Shown: positions 10,917 to 47,565 of the stretch, piece by piece
Position numbering within the stretch: position 1 is the stretch's first letter
Layout of the letters: every line of letters starts with the position of its first letter
Source of the DNA: Thermodesulfobacteriota bacterium
GTDB lineage: Bacteria > Desulfobacterota_D > UBA1144 > Nemesobacterales > UBA2774
Assembly (NCBI GenBank): GCA_965216785.1
Contig: OZ244197.1
Location: forward strand, 736,001-800,000
Direction: 5' to 3'
Length of the DNA stretch: 64,000 bases
Translations under genes and position numbers: made by a program
The notes under the pieces: model-generated
Databases searched by the model: none
The model's input: the letters and a program-made list of their open reading frames with translations, nothing else
Told to the model about the DNA's origin: nothing

Positions 10917-10964
10917 TTGACAGGTTTTAAATATACGCATATAATTGAGAAAGTTTCTCAATTA
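10917..10964 (+). promoter_or_regulatory. Sigma70 promoter overlapped by a Fur-family (Zur-type) box
   Basis: TTGACA (10917-10922)-17 bp-TATAAT (10940-10945); perfect 11-1-11 palindrome TAATTGAGAAA-G-TTTCTCAATTA at 10942-10964. Confidence 0.85.
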
Positions 10965-11063: not shown

Positions 11064-11480
11064 GTGTCAAAAGATATAAAAAGCATATTCCACGAGCAGG
11101 GACTGAAGTTTACGCCGCAGAGAAAGGCTGTACTTAAAGTCCTTCAGGATACGCACGCATATCTGCCGATAAATAAAATTCATACAAACGTAAAGGAGAT
11201 ACTCCCCGGCACAGGCCTGGCTACTGTATACCGCTCGCTTGAAACATTGGTCGATCTCGAATTAGTCGTGAAAGTTCACCTCAAAGACGGCTGCCACAGC
11301 TACGCGCTAGCACCCGAAGGGCACCGTCACCCTATTGTCTGTACCGACTGCAGTAAGGTAATCGAATACACAGAGTGCCCTATTGAGGAATTATCGAAAA
11401 AGGTATCAAAAGACACCGGCATCCCTATTCAAAACCATTTCCTTCAGCTTTTCGGGAAATGTAAGGAATGTAGGGCGTAA
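11064..11480 (+). CDS. zur: Fur family transcriptional regulator, probably Zur
   Basis: TPQRKAVL, GLATVYRSL, HRHPIVCTDC, GKCKEC; heads an operon containing znuABC-like genes. Confidence 0.75.
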   Translation: MSKDIKSIFHEQGLKFTPQRKAVLKVLQDTHAYLPINKIHTNVKEILPGTGLATVYRSLETLVDLELVVKVHLKDGCHSYALAPEGHRHPIVCTDCSKVIEYTECPIEELSKKVSKDTGIPIQNHFLQLFGKCKECRA

Positions 11481-11495
11481 GGAAAATAAAAAGAT

Positions 11496-12167
11496 ATGTC
11501 ACATTTACACATACCCGACGGAGTGCTCCCCGGCTGGCTCGTATTAGCAGGCTGGTTATTCACAGCGGTATTACTCGCATTGTGTATATACAGAGTAAGG
11601 CGTGTAGAGCTGACCCGGAAGATCCCGCTCATCGGGATAATTTCAGCGCTCATGATCGTATGCATGACGCTGCCGGTGATTCCGTTTGCGTATCACGTGA
11701 ACCTGAGCGTAGTGGCCGGGATAATCCTTGGACCCGCGCTTGCGTTTATTTCAATATTCATCGTAGACCTGATAATAGCGATGTTCGGCCACGGGGGGAT
11801 AACCGTAGTCGGGCTTAATACTATTGTAGTCGGCGCCGAAGCAGTACTCGGTTATTACCTATTTCTAATGTTTAAAATGCTGATGGGTAACTATTCGGTC
11901 GGCTGGTCGTCGGGGATTGCAGCGGTGTTCAGCCTGATATTGAGCACAACATTACTAGTAGGTCTACTTTATGCAGCCCATGTGAACCCCGATCTAATGA
12001 TAGAGGCGGAATCACACGTAAAAAACGGGCTTAACATTGGCGTGTTCATAAAAACAGCCCTGACCATACTATTTTTCGGGTGGATGATCGAGGGAGTGAT
12101 TACAGGGCTCGTTATAAAGTACGTCTCGGGCATCCGGCCAGATTTGATACAGACGGACACAACATAG
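11496..12167 (+). CDS. cbiM: ECF transporter substrate-capture subunit, CbiM/NikM family
   Basis: N-terminal HIPDG motif, YHVNL, FGHGGITVVGLN, MIEGVITG. Confidence 0.8.
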   Translation: MSHLHIPDGVLPGWLVLAGWLFTAVLLALCIYRVRRVELTRKIPLIGIISALMIVCMTLPVIPFAYHVNLSVVAGIILGPALAFISIFIVDLIIAMFGHGGITVVGLNTIVVGAEAVLGYYLFLMFKMLMGNYSVGWSSGIAAVFSLILSTTLLVGLLYAAHVNPDLMIEAESHVKNGLNIGVFIKTALTILFFGWMIEGVITGLVIKYVSGIRPDLIQTDTT

Positions 12168-12177
12168 GAAACAGAGA

Positions 12178-12981
12178 ATGGACATTGCACTAATAGATTA
12201 TTACGCAAATCATGGAAAGAGCTTTCTCCACAGCGCAGCGGCACCGAGCAAGCTACTGTTTTCAGCCCTGGTCATAGCCTCTGTAGTGATTACAGAAGAG
12301 TTTTACCTTTTGCTCGCCATTTATCTGTTACTTGTAAGCATGGCCGTATGGACAAGGCTTTCAGTTACTAAAATAATAACTATTGCGGCTTATCCTGCTA
12401 TATTCGCAATTTTATTCGTCATAGCAACCTGGGACGGAAGTCTGTTGAGAGCGGGGGTGATAATGTTAAAGGCCCTAACCGCCGCCCTTACTATGGTGAT
12501 TCTCATAGTAACCACTCCTTACCCCGATGTTTTTAAAACCCTAAAACCTATATTGCCCGGGATAATTCACGACGGGCTGTATCTGACGTACCGCTCGCTC
12601 TTCGTTCTGCTTGAAATGACCGATGAACTGGTTAAAGGTCTTAAGGTAAGAGGCGGTCTGACAAAAAAGAAATATTTCACAAACATCGCCAATTTCTCGT
12701 CCGGCATTGGGCTCGTGCTGGTAAAGGGGTTCGACATAACGGAAAAGTATTACGGTGTGATGAAAGTAAGGGGGTATACAGGGAAAATTGCGGCGGATAA
12801 AAACAGCAGGAGATTTAGTACAGAGGACTTAAGGGCAGTAGGATTTGGTGTATTAATATTCTCCGTAGCGCTTGGAGTTAAGCTTTATGGAAGTATCTAC
12901 AAATCGGGCTTATATGCGCTTATTCTTGCGGCAATCATTCTAATAATATCAATAGGATACATAGCTAAAGAGAGAAAATAA
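12178..12981 (+). CDS. cbiQ: ECF transporter transmembrane subunit T (CbiQ family)
   Basis: Multi-TM; TTPY, LTYRSLFVL, two VRG coupling motifs. Confidence 0.8.
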   Translation: MDIALIDYYANHGKSFLHSAAAPSKLLFSALVIASVVITEEFYLLLAIYLLLVSMAVWTRLSVTKIITIAAYPAIFAILFVIATWDGSLLRAGVIMLKALTAALTMVILIVTTPYPDVFKTLKPILPGIIHDGLYLTYRSLFVLLEMTDELVKGLKVRGGLTKKKYFTNIANFSSGIGLVLVKGFDITEKYYGVMKVRGYTGKIAADKNSRRFSTEDLRAVGFGVLIFSVALGVKLYGSIYKSGLYALILAAIILIISIGYIAKERK

Positions 12982-12990
12982 GGAGAAACT

Positions 12991-13848
12991 TTGGAAGAGC
13001 TTGTAAAAGTAAGTAACCTGAAATTCAAATACCCCGACGGCACCTCGCTCTCATTTGACGGGCAGGAATTTACTGTGGGAAAAGGTGAGCGTGTAGCAAT
13101 ACTCGGACCCAACGGAAGCGGTAAATCTACACTTCTCTCGCTCCTTTTGGGACTATTAAAATCAACAGAGGGCGAGATCAATGTGCTCGGTGTAAACCCT
13201 GGAGCAGACTATGAGAAAGTACGCGAGCGAATAGGGGCGCTCCTTCAGAACGTGGAGCTTCAGATCATCGCCCCCCGCGTATGGGATGATATTTCATTTT
13301 CTCCACGGAACTACGGCTACGACAAGGAAGAGACAGATAAGCTTGTAGAGGAGCTTCTTGTTAAGCTCGATATTGACCACCTTAGAGATAAAGTGCCTCA
13401 TTACCTGAGCGGGGGGGAAAAAACCAAGGTTGCAATTGCGGGCGCTCTTGCCACTAGACCCGAGCTTTTAATCCTGGACGAGCCGTTCGAGCACATAGAC
13501 CCCACTTGCAGAAAAGAACAGATAAATCTGCTGAACAGCGTAAACCGCGAGCACGGAACAGCTATAGTATTATCAACACACAACATGAATACAGTGCCTC
13601 TTGTCGCAGATACGGTCTATTTGATCGGCGAGGGAGGACATATAGTTAAGAAAGGCACCCCGAAAGAGATTTTCTCTGATGTAGAGTCTCTTTCAAAATG
13701 CCATATTGAGCCTCCTATATTGGGAGAGCTCTTCTCGGAGCTTAAGAAAAGCGGCATAGATTTAGATGTATCTTTAACAGTAGAAGAGGCCGCTTGCACT
13801 TTAAGGGATATCTTGCTATCATCTAAAAACAGGTCGGACGTCGGATGA
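12991..13848 (+). CDS. cbiO: ECF transporter ATPase (CbiO family)
   Basis: GPNGSGKST, LSGGEK, LILDEP, STH. Confidence 0.85.
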   Translation: MEELVKVSNLKFKYPDGTSLSFDGQEFTVGKGERVAILGPNGSGKSTLLSLLLGLLKSTEGEINVLGVNPGADYEKVRERIGALLQNVELQIIAPRVWDDISFSPRNYGYDKEETDKLVEELLVKLDIDHLRDKVPHYLSGGEKTKVAIAGALATRPELLILDEPFEHIDPTCRKEQINLLNSVNREHGTAIVLSTHNMNTVPLVADTVYLIGEGGHIVKKGTPKEIFSDVESLSKCHIEPPILGELFSELKKSGIDLDVSLTVEEAACTLRDILLSSKNRSDVG

Positions 13849-14183
13849 ATACAGTTAGAGAAAATATAATGAAAGGACCCGCAAGATTGTTACTGCCGAT
13901 GTTGGCAGTCATCTTCGTTATATCTATCAGCTTACACAATCATGCTATAGGTATAGACTCCGGATCTGTAATTGAGCTCTCCGACGCGGCGCCCGACACG
14001 CACCATTCGGTCCAGGATTGCTCTGCCTGTTTACTGCAGGGAAACGTTAAGCTGCCGGATATGGGTGCCGTATTCATTGCACCTATCCCGCTGATTATCA
14101 CATCCTTAGAAGAAACCGAATTTCTAATACCATCTTCATTCTTACAACTTAATAAACCCTCACGCTCACCGCCGACCGTATAG
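13845..14183 (+). CDS. DUF2946/CruR-like metal-sensing upstream ORF (putative ribosome-arrest peptide)
   Basis: N-terminal hydrophobic segment, HNH, HH, CSAC, C-terminal RSPP; directly upstream of an outer-membrane metal-uptake gene; alternative start ATG 13869. Confidence 0.7.
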   Translation: MNTVRENIMKGPARLLLPMLAVIFVISISLHNHAIGIDSGSVIELSDAAPDTHHSVQDCSACLLQGNVKLPDMGAVFIAPIPLIITSLEETEFLIPSSFLQLNKPSRSPPTV

Positions 14184-14381
14184 CTTTCAGTTTGCCGTGT
14201 GAGCACAAGGGTGAAATGAACCGATAAATTCGCCCCAATTATACATATACATTCATATGTTCGGACTAAAGTGCGGAAGTTCCGTTTTTAGCGCCGAGGT
14301 TTTTTCTATTCAATAAGAAATAGCTCACACCGGCTGATTGGTTACCGGAATTCCATACTAATACACATTTGGAGGTGAGTT
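14184..14381 (+). promoter_or_regulatory. Structured intergenic leader (candidate translational switch/attenuator)
   Basis: Outer helix 14194-14204/14323-14334 encloses hairpins 14209-14235, 14243-14260 and 14261-14297 (the last followed by a T-run). Confidence 0.55.
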
Positions 14382-15767
14382 ATGCGTTTAAGAAGAATTA
14401 TCTTTACAGCAGTCCTAATTCTGTTTATATCTCCGGATTTTACACAGCAAGCATTTGGAGATGAGAAAAATGATGTAAAGCAGGAACTAAAAGAGCTCAG
14501 GAAAATGATGGAAACGATGCAGCAAAGAATTGATGAGCTTGAAGAGAAAAATGAAACATTGGAAAAACAAGCCAAAGAAAAAGACGAGACAATAGTAGTC
14601 GAAGAGGAAACGGATTTAACCGTGATTGAGCAGCCTGCCACTGAGCGGGAGGGATTTTTCCAGAGAGCCCTCAATACCTTTAACCCCGAGATAAGCGTAA
14701 TAGGTATATTCGCTGCCGCCTGGTATTCGCAGGACGACCCGATTGTATTCGCTGAGGCAGACCCTGAAAATACTGGCGTTAATCTACAGGAACTCGAGAT
14801 CGGATTTCAGGGCGTTATAGACTCCTACTTCAGGTTCGATGCTTTCCTCTCTTTCGGAATCGAAGGAGTGGAGCTTGAAGAAGCATACGGGACAACGCTT
14901 TTCAGCCTGCCGCTTAACTCTCAGATAAGAGCGGGAAGAATGAGGGCCAAGTTCGGCAGGATCAACCAAATCCACAGACACAACCAGAACTTCGTGACTC
15001 TGCCGCTACCCGCAGCTCAGTTCTTGGGCGAGCATCTAAACCCAACGAGCATAGAGGCTAATTTTCTTGTGCCCGTTCCTTGGTATATGGAGCTAAGCGC
15101 TCTGGGCGGAAGCCCTGACGTAGAGACACCGACCTTTGACAGGGACGAAAACGCAAACAACCTGGCAAGGCTCCTTTATATTTTCCATTTGGCAAACTTC
15201 GTTGAGGTCTCTGAGGCGCTTGGCGTAAGCTTGGGCGGCTCGTTCGCTACGGGCGCAAACAATACCGGGCGTGATGAGAGATCAAACCTATACGGTGTAG
15301 ACCTATTCGCCAAATACCGGCCGCTTAAAAATAACCCTTATCAGGAAGTGATGCTCCAGTCAGAGTTTATGTACCTAGACGCGGACACCCCTGAAGAGAA
15401 CCTCGAGAACTGGGGCTGGTACGCTCAGCTCGTTTACCGTTTCGCAAAGAGATGGAATACCGGATTTCGGTACGGGATAATCGACACGAATACACCTGTA
15501 CATGAAGAAGAGGAGCTAGAGGGTGATCCGGCCGGGCTGTTTAGTTTAATTAGGACAGGCGAGGAGGAAGAGGGACATGAAGAAGGGATGCTCGGTTTAG
15601 AAGGCAGAACGTACCGCCTATCGCCGATGCTGACTTTTAACCCGAGCGAATTCTCGCGCCTGAGAATACAGTACGACTACCTGAACCAGGACTTTGCCGA
15701 AAACCAGCACGCGATATTCCTTCAGTTCCAGTACTCGCTGGGAGCGCACGGGGCGCACCCGTTTTAA
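14382..15767 (+). CDS. Zinc-regulated outer-membrane beta-barrel/porin-like protein
   Basis: Signal peptide, coiled-coil N-terminus, NPEISVIG, LEEAY, FGRINQIHRH, PSEFSRLRIQY, C-terminal LGAHGAHPF; precedes znuA. Confidence 0.8.
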   Translation: MRLRRIIFTAVLILFISPDFTQQAFGDEKNDVKQELKELRKMMETMQQRIDELEEKNETLEKQAKEKDETIVVEEETDLTVIEQPATEREGFFQRALNTFNPEISVIGIFAAAWYSQDDPIVFAEADPENTGVNLQELEIGFQGVIDSYFRFDAFLSFGIEGVELEEAYGTTLFSLPLNSQIRAGRMRAKFGRINQIHRHNQNFVTLPLPAAQFLGEHLNPTSIEANFLVPVPWYMELSALGGSPDVETPTFDRDENANNLARLLYIFHLANFVEVSEALGVSLGGSFATGANNTGRDERSNLYGVDLFAKYRPLKNNPYQEVMLQSEFMYLDADTPEENLENWGWYAQLVYRFAKRWNTGFRYGIIDTNTPVHEEEELEGDPAGLFSLIRTGEEEEGHEEGMLGLEGRTYRLSPMLTFNPSEFSRLRIQYDYLNQDFAENQHAIFLQFQYSLGAHGAHPF

Positions 15768-15792: not shown

Positions 15793-16776
15793 ATGAAAAA
15801 CAAAATTTCACTAAAACAATTTGCATTGAGTGTGTTATTTGCAGCGGCGGCGCTTGTTATGACCGATATACCCGCGCTTGCCCAGGTAAAGGTAGTGACT
15901 TCAGTACCGGACTTTGCCGCTATCGCAAAAGAGATCGGCGGAGACAGAGTAGAGGTAACGAGCCTCGCCAAGGGTTACCAAGACCCCCATTTCGTAGACG
16001 CAAAGCCGATTTTTATTACAAGGCTTAACCAGGCGGATATGCTTATCTATAACGGTCTTGACCTAGAAGTTGGGTGGCTGCCGATTCTCATTACTGGGGC
16101 AAGGAACTCAAATATCTCCTCTCCCCACGAAATCGGCCACTATAACGCCTCTGTATCAATTAAGGAATTTCTGGAAGTGCCCACTATACCAGTCGACAGG
16201 TCGATGGGGGACGTACACCCGGGGGGCAACCCTCACTATATGCTTGACCCCAGAAGCGGTATACCCGTCGCCAGAAGCATCGCTGCAAGACTCATACAAA
16301 TAGACACTGAGAACGCTTCATATTACGAGGAGAATTTCAACAACTTCGTCAGCACACTCAGGCTTAAGATAAGCGAATGGGAAGATGAGCTTGAGCCCTT
16401 TAAAGGCACTCAGGTCGTAACATACCATAAGCTCTGGAGCTACTTCTTGAATTGGGCGGGTTTTAAGAACGCGGGAACGATAGAACCTAAACCGGGAATA
16501 CCGCCTTCGCCTTCACACACTGCCGAGATTATAAACACGATGGAGCGTAAGAATGTCGGACTTATTATAGCGGCTAACTATTACCCGGAAAAAACGGCTT
16601 CGATTATCGCCCAGAAAACAGGCGTCATTTTCCTTTCTTTGCCTGCGATGGTTGAGGGGAGAGACGGTATAGAGAGCTATATTGAGCTATTCGACGCGCT
16701 CGTGGGCGAGATTACGTCTGCGCTTCAGAATAGGACAGGCTCGACTGAAATCAGGGCAGGATTTAATGACGGATAA
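15793..16776 (+). CDS. znuA: Metal (Zn/Mn) ABC transporter substrate-binding protein
   Basis: QDPHFV, GDVHPGGNPHY, YHKLWSY; cluster A-I solute-binding protein. Confidence 0.85.
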   Translation: MKNKISLKQFALSVLFAAAALVMTDIPALAQVKVVTSVPDFAAIAKEIGGDRVEVTSLAKGYQDPHFVDAKPIFITRLNQADMLIYNGLDLEVGWLPILITGARNSNISSPHEIGHYNASVSIKEFLEVPTIPVDRSMGDVHPGGNPHYMLDPRSGIPVARSIAARLIQIDTENASYYEENFNNFVSTLRLKISEWEDELEPFKGTQVVTYHKLWSYFLNWAGFKNAGTIEPKPGIPPSPSHTAEIINTMERKNVGLIIAANYYPEKTASIIAQKTGVIFLSLPAMVEGRDGIESYIELFDALVGEITSALQNRTGSTEIRAGFNDG

Positions 16777-16801
16777 ATAAGTTTACATATCTCCAAAGGT
16801 G

Positions 16802-16842
16802 CCCCCGGGCTGCCCTTGAGAAGGGGACTCAGTCCGGGGGGG
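16802..16842 (+). other. GC-rich intercistronic hairpin between znuA and znuC
   Basis: CCCCCGGGCTG (16802-16812) pairs with CAGTCCGGGGG (16830-16840); inner CCCTT/AAGGG. Confidence 0.6.
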
Positions 16843-16872
16843 TTCTCACTTTCTAAGTCTGGGATAAAAACG

Positions 16873-17622
16873 ATGGCGAATCTCATAAAGCTTGAAAATC
16901 TAACAATAGGGTATGAAAAAAAAGCGCTCATTAAAACTTCTGATATATCCATAGACAGTGGACAATTTTGGGGAGTATTAGGGCCTAACGGGAGTGGGAA
17001 GAGCACTCTCCTTAAAACTATACTGGGATTAATACACCCTCTAGCGGGACAAGTTAATTCTAAAAAAGGTATAGTGCTGGGCTACGTTCCGCAGAGTGAA
17101 AAGTTTGACCCCATCTTTCCGGTTTCAGTGTATGAGCTCGTATCTATGGGACGATACAGCAGGGTCTCCCCCGGAAAGAGGCTCGGGATGAGGGATAGAG
17201 AAGCAATAGAGAGATCGATTGAAAAAGCGGGGATATCACACTTATCTAACCGCAAATTCCGCTCGCTTTCGGGAGGAGAGAAGCAGCGCTCGCTCCTCGC
17301 AAGGGCGATTGCTGGGGAGCCCGATATATTAGTACTAGATGAGCCAACGGCGGCGGTAGATATTAAGGGAGAGGCGCAAATAATGAGCCTTGTAAAAGAT
17401 ATAAAAAAGGAGAGCGGGCTTGCGGTTTTAATGGTCAGCCACTTTCTAAACACTATATCCGCATTTTCAGACTATATTATATTGATCGACAAGGACAAGG
17501 AGCTATTTCAGGCAGGCGAGAAGTCCGAAATTCTAAACAGCGAGAACCTGAGCGCGTTCTTCGGGCTGAACCTTGATATGGAGAGAATAAAGGAGATGCA
17601 GGCGATCGACCGCCTGACATAA
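16873..17622 (+). CDS. znuC: Metal ABC transporter ATP-binding protein
   Basis: GPNGSGKSTL, GYVPQ, LSGGEKQR, LVLDEPT; start revised to ATG 16873. Confidence 0.85.
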   Translation: MANLIKLENLTIGYEKKALIKTSDISIDSGQFWGVLGPNGSGKSTLLKTILGLIHPLAGQVNSKKGIVLGYVPQSEKFDPIFPVSVYELVSMGRYSRVSPGKRLGMRDREAIERSIEKAGISHLSNRKFRSLSGGEKQRSLLARAIAGEPDILVLDEPTAAVDIKGEAQIMSLVKDIKKESGLAVLMVSHFLNTISAFSDYIILIDKDKELFQAGEKSEILNSENLSAFFGLNLDMERIKEMQAIDRLT

Positions 17623-17634
17623 TGCTGGACTAAT

Positions 17635-18483
17635 ATGGCAACATTTGCTGAATTTATAAACAGCTACTTTCTATGGAGAGACCCTATGATAGTCGGGGCC
17701 GCCGCGGGTGCTGTGTGCGGTTTTCTCGGAGTATATGTGGTGCTGAGGCGCATAGTGTTCGTAAGCGCGGCGCTTACTCAAATATCGAGCTTCGGCGTTG
17801 GGTTAGCTTTTTATCTTGAAGCATACAGCATAGGGGTTTTCGCCTCATTATTCGATCCCTTTATACTGTCCTTGCTATTGACATGCCTGGCAGCCGTTTT
17901 CTTTTCATCAAAAAGGGATTTCTCACGGATAAGCACGGAAGGCGTTATTGCGTTTGGATTTTTACTGGCCTCGGGAGCAGTAGTTATAATAGGCGACAGG
18001 ATAACAAAAGGGGCGCATGATATAGCAAATATACTTTTCGGAAGCGCCGTTGTAGTTGACCCTTCAGACGTTTTGATAATACCCTCTGTTGCGCTTGCAG
18101 TATTTATAATTCACCTGATCTACTATAAAGATTTTGTATTCGTATCCTTTGACACCGAGACCGCGAAACTGTTTAAATATCCTGTAAGGCTGCTGAACAC
18201 CGGCCTCCTTATTACCATTGCAGTAGTAGTGGCTGTATCAACCAGAGCTCTCGGCGCGCTTCCCGTGTTTGCGTTATTAGCACTGCCGGCGCTTTCGTCG
18301 CTGCTCATAACGGAAAATCTGAAACTCGTTTTTATACTCTCCATAGTTATAGGAATCTTATCAGCAACTTTAGGCTACTTTTTCTCGTTTATTTTTTCAC
18401 TCCCGACAGGAGCGTCGATGACTGTTTGTGCGGCAATCTTTTTTCTTGTAGCGCTTGGGTTAAGGGAGTTAAGAGCAAGGTAA
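17635..18483 (+). CDS. znuB: Metal ABC transporter permease
   Basis: GFLGVYVVLRR, ILFGS, SFDTETA; ABC-3 family. Confidence 0.85.
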   Translation: MATFAEFINSYFLWRDPMIVGAAAGAVCGFLGVYVVLRRIVFVSAALTQISSFGVGLAFYLEAYSIGVFASLFDPFILSLLLTCLAAVFFSSKRDFSRISTEGVIAFGFLLASGAVVIIGDRITKGAHDIANILFGSAVVVDPSDVLIIPSVALAVFIIHLIYYKDFVFVSFDTETAKLFKYPVRLLNTGLLITIAVVVAVSTRALGALPVFALLALPALSSLLITENLKLVFILSIVIGILSATLGYFFSFIFSLPTGASMTVCAAIFFLVALGLRELRAR

Positions 18484-47312: not shown

Positions 47313-47348
47313 GTAAACCTTGCTTTACGGATCTTTTACAATTTAACG

Positions 47349-47508
47349 TACAGGGCGCTTTAAGCTTAATAGGGAAATCCGGTGAGAATCCGGTGCAGCC
47401 CGCTCGCTGCTGTAAGTAGTCCAAAAAGTCCTTTGCATTATGTCACTGGAACTATCCGGGAAGGCGCAAAGGAGACCCGAGGCTACGAGCCAGAATACCT
47501 GCCTTGTA
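47349..47508 (+). ncRNA. Cobalamin riboswitch
   Basis: AATAGGGAA-TCCGGTGAGAATCCGG-GCAGCCC...CTGTAA...CACTGG...GGGAAGGC...B12-box GAGCCAGAATACCTGCC; P1 TACAGGGC/GCCTTGTA; upstream of a TonB-dependent receptor. Confidence 0.93.
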
Positions 47509-47565
47509 ACACCCGTAAATTACTATTCTTCGGGGGGAGAATGTAAATGCTTATTTTAGTCAAGC

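Follow-up and report, generated by a model that had tools for sequence, protein, structure and literature searches.

The locus described here raises the question of how a ribosome that stalls on a leader peptide could control a start codon far downstream of it. It lies in a 64-kb stretch of DNA from a Thermodesulfobacteriota bacterium (contig OZ244197.1, positions 736,001 to 800,000; hereafter the window, numbered from its first base), which belongs to a genome of 3.1 Mb in a single contig that we call G000. A leader open reading frame (ORF) ending in Arg-Ser-Pro-Pro (RSPP) precedes a gene for a porin-fold protein, which is followed by genes resembling znuACB. Our answer, which we consider probable, is that the RSPP codons pair with the porin Shine-Dalgarno (SD) sequence 200 bases downstream and that a ribosome stalled on these codons frees the start of a metal-uptake operon.

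The leader is laid out as a hydrophobic helix, H31-x-H33, C59-x-x-C62, 44 residues, R107-S-P-P110, Thr, Val and stop, with RSPP encoded by CGC TCA CCG CCG (14163-14174), followed by ACC GTA TAG. Homologues of the porin were found in 30 of 33 genomes of the family and 86 of 120 genomes of the phylum, and 54 loci from across the order were inspected for a leader; L018, L030 and L074 were dropped for too little upstream DNA and L031-L037 as duplicates, and genus g26 was sampled by 4 of its 36 genomes. A leader with CxxC and R-S/A/G-P-P is present in 49 of the 54 loci, while none was found upstream of the porin in L077 and L090. Six residues are invariant over the 49 homologues (one His, two Cys, the Arg and two Pro), the set having been filtered on CxxC, which is present in 49/49. 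The C-terminal motif is RSPP in 35 loci, RAPP in 11 and RGPP in 3, and the distance from CxxC to the Arg, 44 in the window leader, is 42-45 over the 49 loci. The window leader has no Pfam or NCBIfam match above cut-off. It does not match PF11162 (DUF2946), the family of the arrest leader CruR, and among the homologues one of 49 gives a hit, at E 0.074, so the leader would work like CruR while scoring outside that family. AlphaFold2 predicts the N-terminal hydrophobic helix at high confidence and most of the chain after it as unstructured; the mean predicted local distance difference test score (pLDDT) is 59.7, with residues 58-86 under 50, and a model of this quality contains no usable metal site.

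The hexamer GCTCAC can be read directly at 14164-14169, within the arrest codons, and at 14323-14328, and its complements are GTGAGC at 14199-14204 and GTGAGT at 14375-14380, as a sequence-only reading of this DNA had reported. The last of these falls in the porin SD region, GGAGGTGAGT (14371-14380), just before the porin ATG at 14382. The pairings which that reading built on the repeats are likewise present: 14164-14173 pairs 9 of 10 bases with 14371-14380, with one G-U and one G/A mismatch, and 14194-14204 forms 11 base pairs with 14323-14334, with C14330 bulged. Two copies and two complements in 220 nt exceed expectation (the whole + strand of the window has 17 GCTCAC), though the motif was chosen after the fact, and conservation is better evidence against chance than motif counts. 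The region 14150-14400 is more stable than its dinucleotide shuffles (z = -3.55; 1 of 200 shuffles as good), and its fold contains the three inner hairpins that had been proposed at probabilities of 0.96, 0.89 and 0.84. The T-run after the third is paired within a small fourth hairpin in the minimum-energy fold.

For what follows we number the strands 1 (arrest codons), 2 (14199-14204), 3 (14323-14328) and 4 (SD), and call the 1:4 helix P1 and the outer 2:3 helix P2. In free RNA folded over four sequence ranges P1 has a probability of 0.955-0.992 and P2 of 0.965-0.998; the two coexist, with P1 nested around P2, while 1:2 and 3:4 are at or below 0.034. This nested state is at -69.6 kcal/mol and a forced 1:2 plus 3:4 state at -60.5, which is 9.1 worse. 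Mutually exclusive pairings, proposed earlier as the main switch, are therefore rejected, being both unfavourable and, as described below, patchily conserved. From the OFF state proposed with them one part survives, the capture of the SD by the arrest strand, whereas capture of 14199-14204 and covering of the SD by 14323-14328 are not supported as the main switch. The proposed ON state, in which the arrest codons are covered, the outer helix is formed and the SD is free, agrees with constrained folding: when the ribosome footprint is masked, P2 is kept and the SD hexamer becomes cheaper to open, at 1.9-6.2 compared with 8.0-8.9 before, the size of the fall varying with mask and range. In one such combination P2 goes down to 0.68 and 3:4 up to 0.22.

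The same behaviour was found in most of the loci compared. Costs of opening the region from SD to AUG were calculated for the 49 loci and for 208 control gene pairs of G000. The median for the loci is 13.2 free and 7.1 masked, compared with 6.55 and 6.50 for the controls, and masking lowers the cost by 3 kcal/mol or more in 41/49 loci against 15/208 controls. The drop at the window locus, 7.9, exceeds the control maximum of 7.1. In 17 loci where the mask was moved, opening is cheapest with the mask ending 15-33 nt past the start of the Arg codon.

Two Pro codons in a row look like an anti-SD for whatever reason they are present, so selection on P1 has to be tested at the wobble positions. The first Pro is CCT in 43/49 loci and in the majority of loci in 17 of 20 genera, compared with a background use of 27% in the porins of the same loci and 34% elsewhere in the leaders; in genus g6 CCT serves for 0-12% of porin prolines, yet is found in 5/5 leaders. 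The second Pro is CCT in 0/49, and all 35 Ser codons are TCN and none AGY. Native codons outpair synonymous recodings against the SD at <=0.05 in 31/49 loci and <=0.2 in 46/49. At the second-Pro wobble the pair is G-U in 14 loci, A-U in 14, G-C in 11 and C-G in 1, with 9 unpaired. The usual TCA CCT CC of the relatives equals the 3' tail sequence of the G000 16S rRNA, TCACCTCC. These codon patterns indicate that P1 is under synonymous selection.

The spacer between leader and porin ranges from 50 to 215 nt with P1 retained, being mostly 145-215 nt in the family of the window and 50-97 nt in most other families. The inner hairpins vary in sequence and length among genera and do not align, and in relatives with short spacers they are absent or replaced. 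Because spacers could not be aligned across genera, cross-genus covariation of P2 was tested by swapping arms in 26 long-spacer loci, leaving out L010 and L028 with their short spacers. Cognate arms outpair every arm from another genus in 18/26, the window locus not being among the 18. Within genus g2, 92% of cells pair and 7 change on both sides, all of these in the P2 helix, with 0/500 shuffles reaching this, figures that derive from one member's fold and are inflated by relatedness. RNAalifold independently yields P1 and P2 for genera g2 and g4. On these comparisons, P2 covaries and loops out a variable spacer domain.

From this we suggest the following sequence of events. When metal is scarce the ribosome would stall on RSPP with Pro109 and Pro110 in its P and A sites, stalling at this leader being likely by analogy with CruR. 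The stalled ribosome would cover about 14157-14187 and block P1, and with P2 alone formed the porin and znuACB-like genes would be translated (ON). Binding of metal to the His and Cys residues of HxH and CxxC would release the arrest, again as in CruR, after which P1 (14164-14175 with 14369-14380) would close, stacked outside the pre-formed P2, and hide the start (OFF). P2 is kept in both predicted states and would act as a bracket that loops out the variable domain. Decay or Rho would follow the OFF state, and a porin left without ribosomes may give Rho the role of a second tier of control; a rho gene is present in G000, above cut-off. Folding also predicts two detours. In transcript prefixes ending at 14215-14330 the 1:2 pairing has a probability of 0.85-1.0 and P2 replaces it, at 0.99, once 14345 is transcribed, so 1:2 is predicted to persist as a co-transcriptional intermediate. 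When the P2 5' arm is masked, the opening cost rises by 8.6 at the window locus and by 2.5 or more in 9/26 loci, 7 of them in g2; without this arm, 3:4 closes the SD in folds of G000 and genus g2, and the second GCTCAC is predicted to be a back-up anti-SD should P2 be lost. Both the transient 1:2 route and the route through loss of the P2 arm are thus predicted to end OFF. Many relatives carry a spacer segment resembling the AU-rich stretch before the SD, which is a possible 30S standby site. As for the metal, in our judgement zinc is the likeliest single candidate at somewhat short of even chances, nickel or cobalt comes next, and the chance of any other metal is lower still.

A number of observations weigh against this proposal. 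In 8/49 loci the drop in opening cost is below 3, in three of these it is negative, and P1 is below 0.5 in 10/49 single-sequence folds, while the 208 controls are crude ORF calls from a single genome. Some of the P1 pairing is an unavoidable result of encoding the peptide, as Pro-Pro codons resemble an anti-SD, and the C-rich codons could instead be retained for a Rho utilisation (rut) site. G000 itself is among the 6/49 loci with a first Pro other than CCT, which places the G/A mismatch in the core of the helix, and the recoding test of the window locus alone is borderline at 0.06. The loci are kin, so that genus-level binomial values overstate the case. No both-side change in P1 occurs within g2, because the SD side is near-invariant and pairs with 16S rRNA. 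The arms of a second leader system, described below, pair with SDs of the first as well as with their own (-12.2 versus -11.1). Lastly, in the excerpts of the literature on which our account of published systems draws, RSPP in other arrest peptides counts as no more than partly permissive (PMC12992588).

The rut site leads to the alternative that release of the arrest exposes it at the leader 3' end, so that transcription is ended by Rho within the long spacer, and that P1 merely helps by keeping ribosomes from the porin start. This is compatible with direct opening of the SD, and as the main switch we think it unlikely. Over its final 81 nt the leader is rich in C and poor in G, both here and over the 49 loci (mean C 0.28, G 0.12, compared with 0.22 and 0.25 in the porins), rho is available, the spacing of 44 from CxxC to Arg resembles the 45 of CruR, and CruR is reported to operate in this way across a 162-nt spacer (PMC9426467, in part). 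The skew is, however, small or absent in some g26 loci and in L071 and partly due to the encoded residues (P, S, L, F), and the spacers of many relatives are merely 50-97 nt. Furthermore, the Ser/Ala wobble is A or G in 41/49 loci and that of the second Pro in 43/49, choices that cost C and keep the pairing, and a rut site needs neither. A different alternative denies any switch and takes the complementarity as incidental to consecutive Pro codons and to a strong SD, the leader being a small exported metal-binding protein. CCN-CCN is anti-SD-like in every case, and GGAGGTGA can be under selection for its strength as an SD; a Fur-family regulator and an operator-like palindrome are already present in the operon, and L077 and L090 have the porin without a leader. 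We nevertheless regard this as very improbable, given the synonymous bias that holds even in g6, the fixed 42-47 spacing and the mostly unstructured chain after the helix; conserved anti-SDs are also described as costly unless they can be opened (PMC12697547, in part).

The remaining alternatives come from the sequence-only reading. Its four-strand toggle, in which 1:2 forms first and is kinetically trapped, 14323-14328 covers the SD and a stalled ribosome forces 2:3, appears improbable to us. The early dominance of 1:2 and the cost of masking the P2 5' arm fit it, in the window 1:2 outperforms each of 200 recodings and 96% of the arms after shuffling, and the alternative pairing did reach 0.034 in one folding range. 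Against this stand the 9.1 kcal/mol that separate it from the nested state, the takeover by P2 after 14345, and the short-spacer families, which retain P1 without strands 2 and 3. The alternative pairings recur in part of the relatives only, 1:2 being significant in 5/26 loci by recoding and 7/26 by shuffling and 3:4 in 7/26, mostly in g2, and neither is significant in the sister species (0.72/0.46 for 1:2, 0.40 for 3:4). The suggestion that hairpin 14261-14297 and its T-run form a regulated intrinsic terminator is the least probable of all and we reject it. The hairpin, at -12.5 kcal/mol, is followed by GGTTTTTT, and a hairpin-plus-U stands at a similar place in 5/8 loci of genus g4, but a consensus scan does not flag it and the T-run is down to four in the sister species. 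There is no strand bias, such elements occurring in 11/49 spacers on the coding strand and 11/49 on the reverse (19/245 shuffles), and the hairpin forms at 0.84 with or without the mask and so is no switch.

The direct pairing of arrest codons and SD, which we prefer, would operate within a larger gene cluster whose features are collected in Table 1. The order is Fur-family regulator, CbiM, CbiQ, ABC ATPase, leader, porin-fold gene, ZnuA-family protein, ABC ATPase and ABC-3 permease, and these neighbours point to transport of Zn, Ni or Co. The ATPase stop and the leader start overlap (ATGA), identically in relatives. The leader is therefore not the first gene of its operon but follows fur-cbiMQO, genes that some relatives in family f2 lack upstream.

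Table 1. Features of the leader-porin locus and its gene cluster (window coordinates).
Feature	Position	Strand	Basis and remarks
Sigma-70-type promoter-like site	10917..10945	+	Predicted; 12/12 consensus match; heads fur-cbiMQO-leader-porin-znuACB-like cluster
Perfect palindrome	10943..10963	.	Sequence; overlaps -10 hexamer
Fur-family regulator	11064..11480	+	Pfam FUR 1.1e-27
CbiM, CbiQ, ABC ATPase (Co/Ni ECF-type transporter)	11496..13848	+	Pfam CbiM, CbiQ, ABC_tran
Leader ORF, 112 codons	13845..14183	+	CruR/CutF anatomy
C-rich, G-poor rut-like stretch	14094..14174	+	Ends at arrest codons; C 0.31, G 0.07, 15 YC
RSPP codons, P1 5' strand (anti-SD)	14163..14175	+	Sequence, fold; relatives typically TCA/TCG CCT CCR
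P2 5' arm	14176..14204	+	Folding, cognate-arm test, genus g2 covariation; core 14194-14204; lower segments 14176-78, 14181-84, 14188-92
Looped-out domain	14209..14320	+	Hairpins 14209-14235, 14243-14260, 14261-14297; T-run 14300-14305; hairpin ~14303-14320
P2 3' arm	14323..14348	+	Core 14323-14334; contains second GCTCAC
AU-rich stretch, 20 nt	14349..14368	+	Directly 5' of SD; unpaired in minimum-energy OFF fold
Porin SD region (P1 3' strand) and start codon	14369..14384	+	GGAGGT in 45/49 loci
Porin-fold protein, 461 aa	14382..15767	+	Outer-membrane; N-terminal coiled coil, C-terminal HGAHPF
ZnuA-family binding protein, ABC ATPase, ABC-3 permease	15793..18483	+	Pfam ZnuA 1.5e-48, ABC_tran, ABC-3 3.5e-42

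Taken together, the hits of the promoter scan do not exceed chance, with 7 sites against 7.8 expected, and the lack of any + strand site within 13722-14382 in this consensus scan is weak for that reason. The palindrome, which we take to be a Fur-family box, is likely from its position to be the operator of the adjacent regulator. Families f2, f4, f7 and f8 have near-copies ahead of their clusters, and the sites in G000, one perfect copy and two with 2 mismatches, are uninformative on the regulator's metal. In L090, which has no leader, a near-copy is found 141 nt 5' of the porin start, an arrangement that suggests that direct repressor control took the leader's place there. The regulator itself scores below the cut-offs of the NCBIfam Fur, PerR and Zur models, and the best NCBIfam model for the ZnuA-family protein, AztC, is also under its cut-off. 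No Rfam model matches the locus at gathering score; the sole match in the window is a cobalamin riboswitch (RF00174, 94 bits) at 47336-47520.

No Pfam or NCBIfam family matches the 461-aa protein above cut-off. The label porin stands by fold, because its AlphaFold2 model (mean pLDDT 71) has solved porins as its top Foldseek matches (chitoporin at E 3.7e-12, OmpT and OprP). A relative in the same genus has a porin 90% identical to it. An acidic, His-containing loop (PVHEEEE...EEEEGHEE, 15490-15600), modelled at low confidence, and the conserved C-terminal HGAH are candidate metal-capture sites. Elsewhere, the porin genes of L022 (G026:C3) and L081 (G042:C50) have internal stops or a shifted frame, with 3 TGA in the former and 1 TAG reported for the latter, owing either to errors of assembly or to decay. 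In L089 (G088:C1:230600-239500) the N-terminal sequence of the porin recurs at the start of an ORF about 2 kb downstream, which suggests a local duplication or fusion. The same locus and L087, both in genus g26, have RGPP leaders with the SD GGAGGAAA, and there the predicted anti-SD has moved to the codons after the prolines, matched on both sides.

G000 contains a second CxxC-RSPP leader (L069:2243-3914; G000:C1:572242-573913), 178 nt 5' of a gene for a His/Met-containing protein of 367 aa without a Pfam match, with the same arrangement of a long-range anti-SD and with a long nested stem. Masking lowers the opening cost at this site from 10.9 to 2.0; the leader is found in 19 of 30 homologous loci, and the drop is 3 or more in 13/19. 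The SD is here mostly followed by A, and codon 2 ends in T in 9/19, pairing U-A in 8, compared with A-U, G-U or G-C in 39/49 porin loci, a difference that reads as a compensatory change between paralogous systems. The bias at the first Pro is weaker than in the first system (CCT in 13/19, background 33%). In distant phyla, a strict CxxC-RxPP leader occurs at 14 of 70 porin loci, one of which duplicates a Dadabacteria locus, and the drop is at least 3 in 10 of the 14. Re-scanning 56 porin loci, mostly of Myxococcota (L099-L161), gave 28, counted by eye, with His-rich leaders ending in PKxxPP or APKx(S/G)PP in place of RAPP, possibly a further class of arrest motif. Among 151 genomes of the class Gammaproteobacteria 6 matched PF11162, as did 2 of 5 in another set, and the P1 folds of four of these loci, a small number to judge by, are mixed. 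Another ORF of G000 (L070:2125-2460; G000:C1:1480624-1480959) ends in RSPPPRI without a CxxC, about 460 nt upstream of a transporter-like gene that presumably encodes a TrkH-type potassium transporter; it may be due to chance or may be a different kind of leader.

A fuller account of the system, to which we give slightly less than an even chance, would be that a single sequence serves Dadabacteria both as arrest peptide and as RNA switch, in which Ser-Pro-Pro is encoded so as to copy the 16S tail and a covarying bracket stem lets it silence a start 200 bases away. Such a device would sense zinc, nickel or cobalt, would be reused at a second operon, and would close truncated or misfolded transcripts by means of a back-up anti-SD. 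If true, it would account for direct translational control by metal-sensing leaders whose spacers are long. Thousands of RAPP-type leaders can be screened for the codon signature, CCT at the first Pro with a purine wobble to either side. The organism is known from metagenome assemblies only, and the leader, spacer and start site are portable to a reporter or PURE system.

The closest published counterpart is CruR (Bp2923, DUF2946), found upstream of bfrG/crtA in Bordetella pertussis (PMC9426467), which arrests at RAPP, its prolines occupying the P and A sites (PMC12992588). As far as these excerpts describe it, CruR shares with the present leader a CxxC that precedes a C-terminal R-x-P-P by about 45 residues, a long spacer, a C-rich 3' end and a downstream outer-membrane uptake gene, and the same metal-off logic is expected here; the hydrophobic N-terminal helix predicted here may correspond to the export-type N-terminus of CruR. 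The present leader differs in having RSPP instead of RAPP, an extra invariant His (HxH) and no PF11162 match above cut-off. It also lies within an operon, overlapping an ABC ATPase stop, in a cluster headed by a Fur-family gene and palindrome, and its target is a porin-fold protein with ZnuACB-like genes. The CruR model as described in those excerpts is without occlusion of the SD by the arrest codons, which is what we predict here. In CutF-cutO of Rhodobacter capsulatus (PMC9973294; bioRxiv 10.1101/2025.02.05.636593) a stalled ribosome likewise opens a helix that hides the SD; according to the portions of these reports available, CutF differs in its CxxxC and PPP motifs, its intergenic stem-loop and its response, copper switching detoxification on. 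Monitoring substrates of the SecM, MifM, VemP and ApdA/ApdP type also combine RAPP-like arrest with disruption of an SD-sequestering stem-loop, but they monitor Sec or YidC, and in the excerpts of PMC10987492 they are without a metal site and their stems are described as local. As in CutF and SecM, the helix that hides the SD at our locus overlaps the footprint of the stalled ribosome, by folding and by conservation.

In translational attenuators of the ermC type four segments alternate between 1:2 with 3:4 and 2:3, the logic of the earlier wiring. The OFF state favoured here is instead 1:4 nested around 2:3, and conservation of the alternative is patchy. Our literature search, which covered few subscription journals, gave nothing on this locus, on a RAPP leader of a zinc operon or on arrest codons acting as a long-range anti-SD, and the leader family may be included in the lists of PMC9426467 (Table S1) and PMC9973294 (File S1). 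In the sections of PMC9973294 available, direct opening of the SD is held likely to require short spacers, and of the paper's 5,334 CutF-like leaders some may sense nickel or cobalt; in Bacillus subtilis, an excerpt of PMC12697547 states, 8-mers resembling an anti-SD can act as repressors over distances of hundreds of bases. CruR and CutF have been shown for copper only, and this locus points to a non-copper member of the group and offers a concrete way round the short-spacer limit. The locus is a long-range variant of the known copper-sensing leaders, and the long-range closing stem is what it adds to them.

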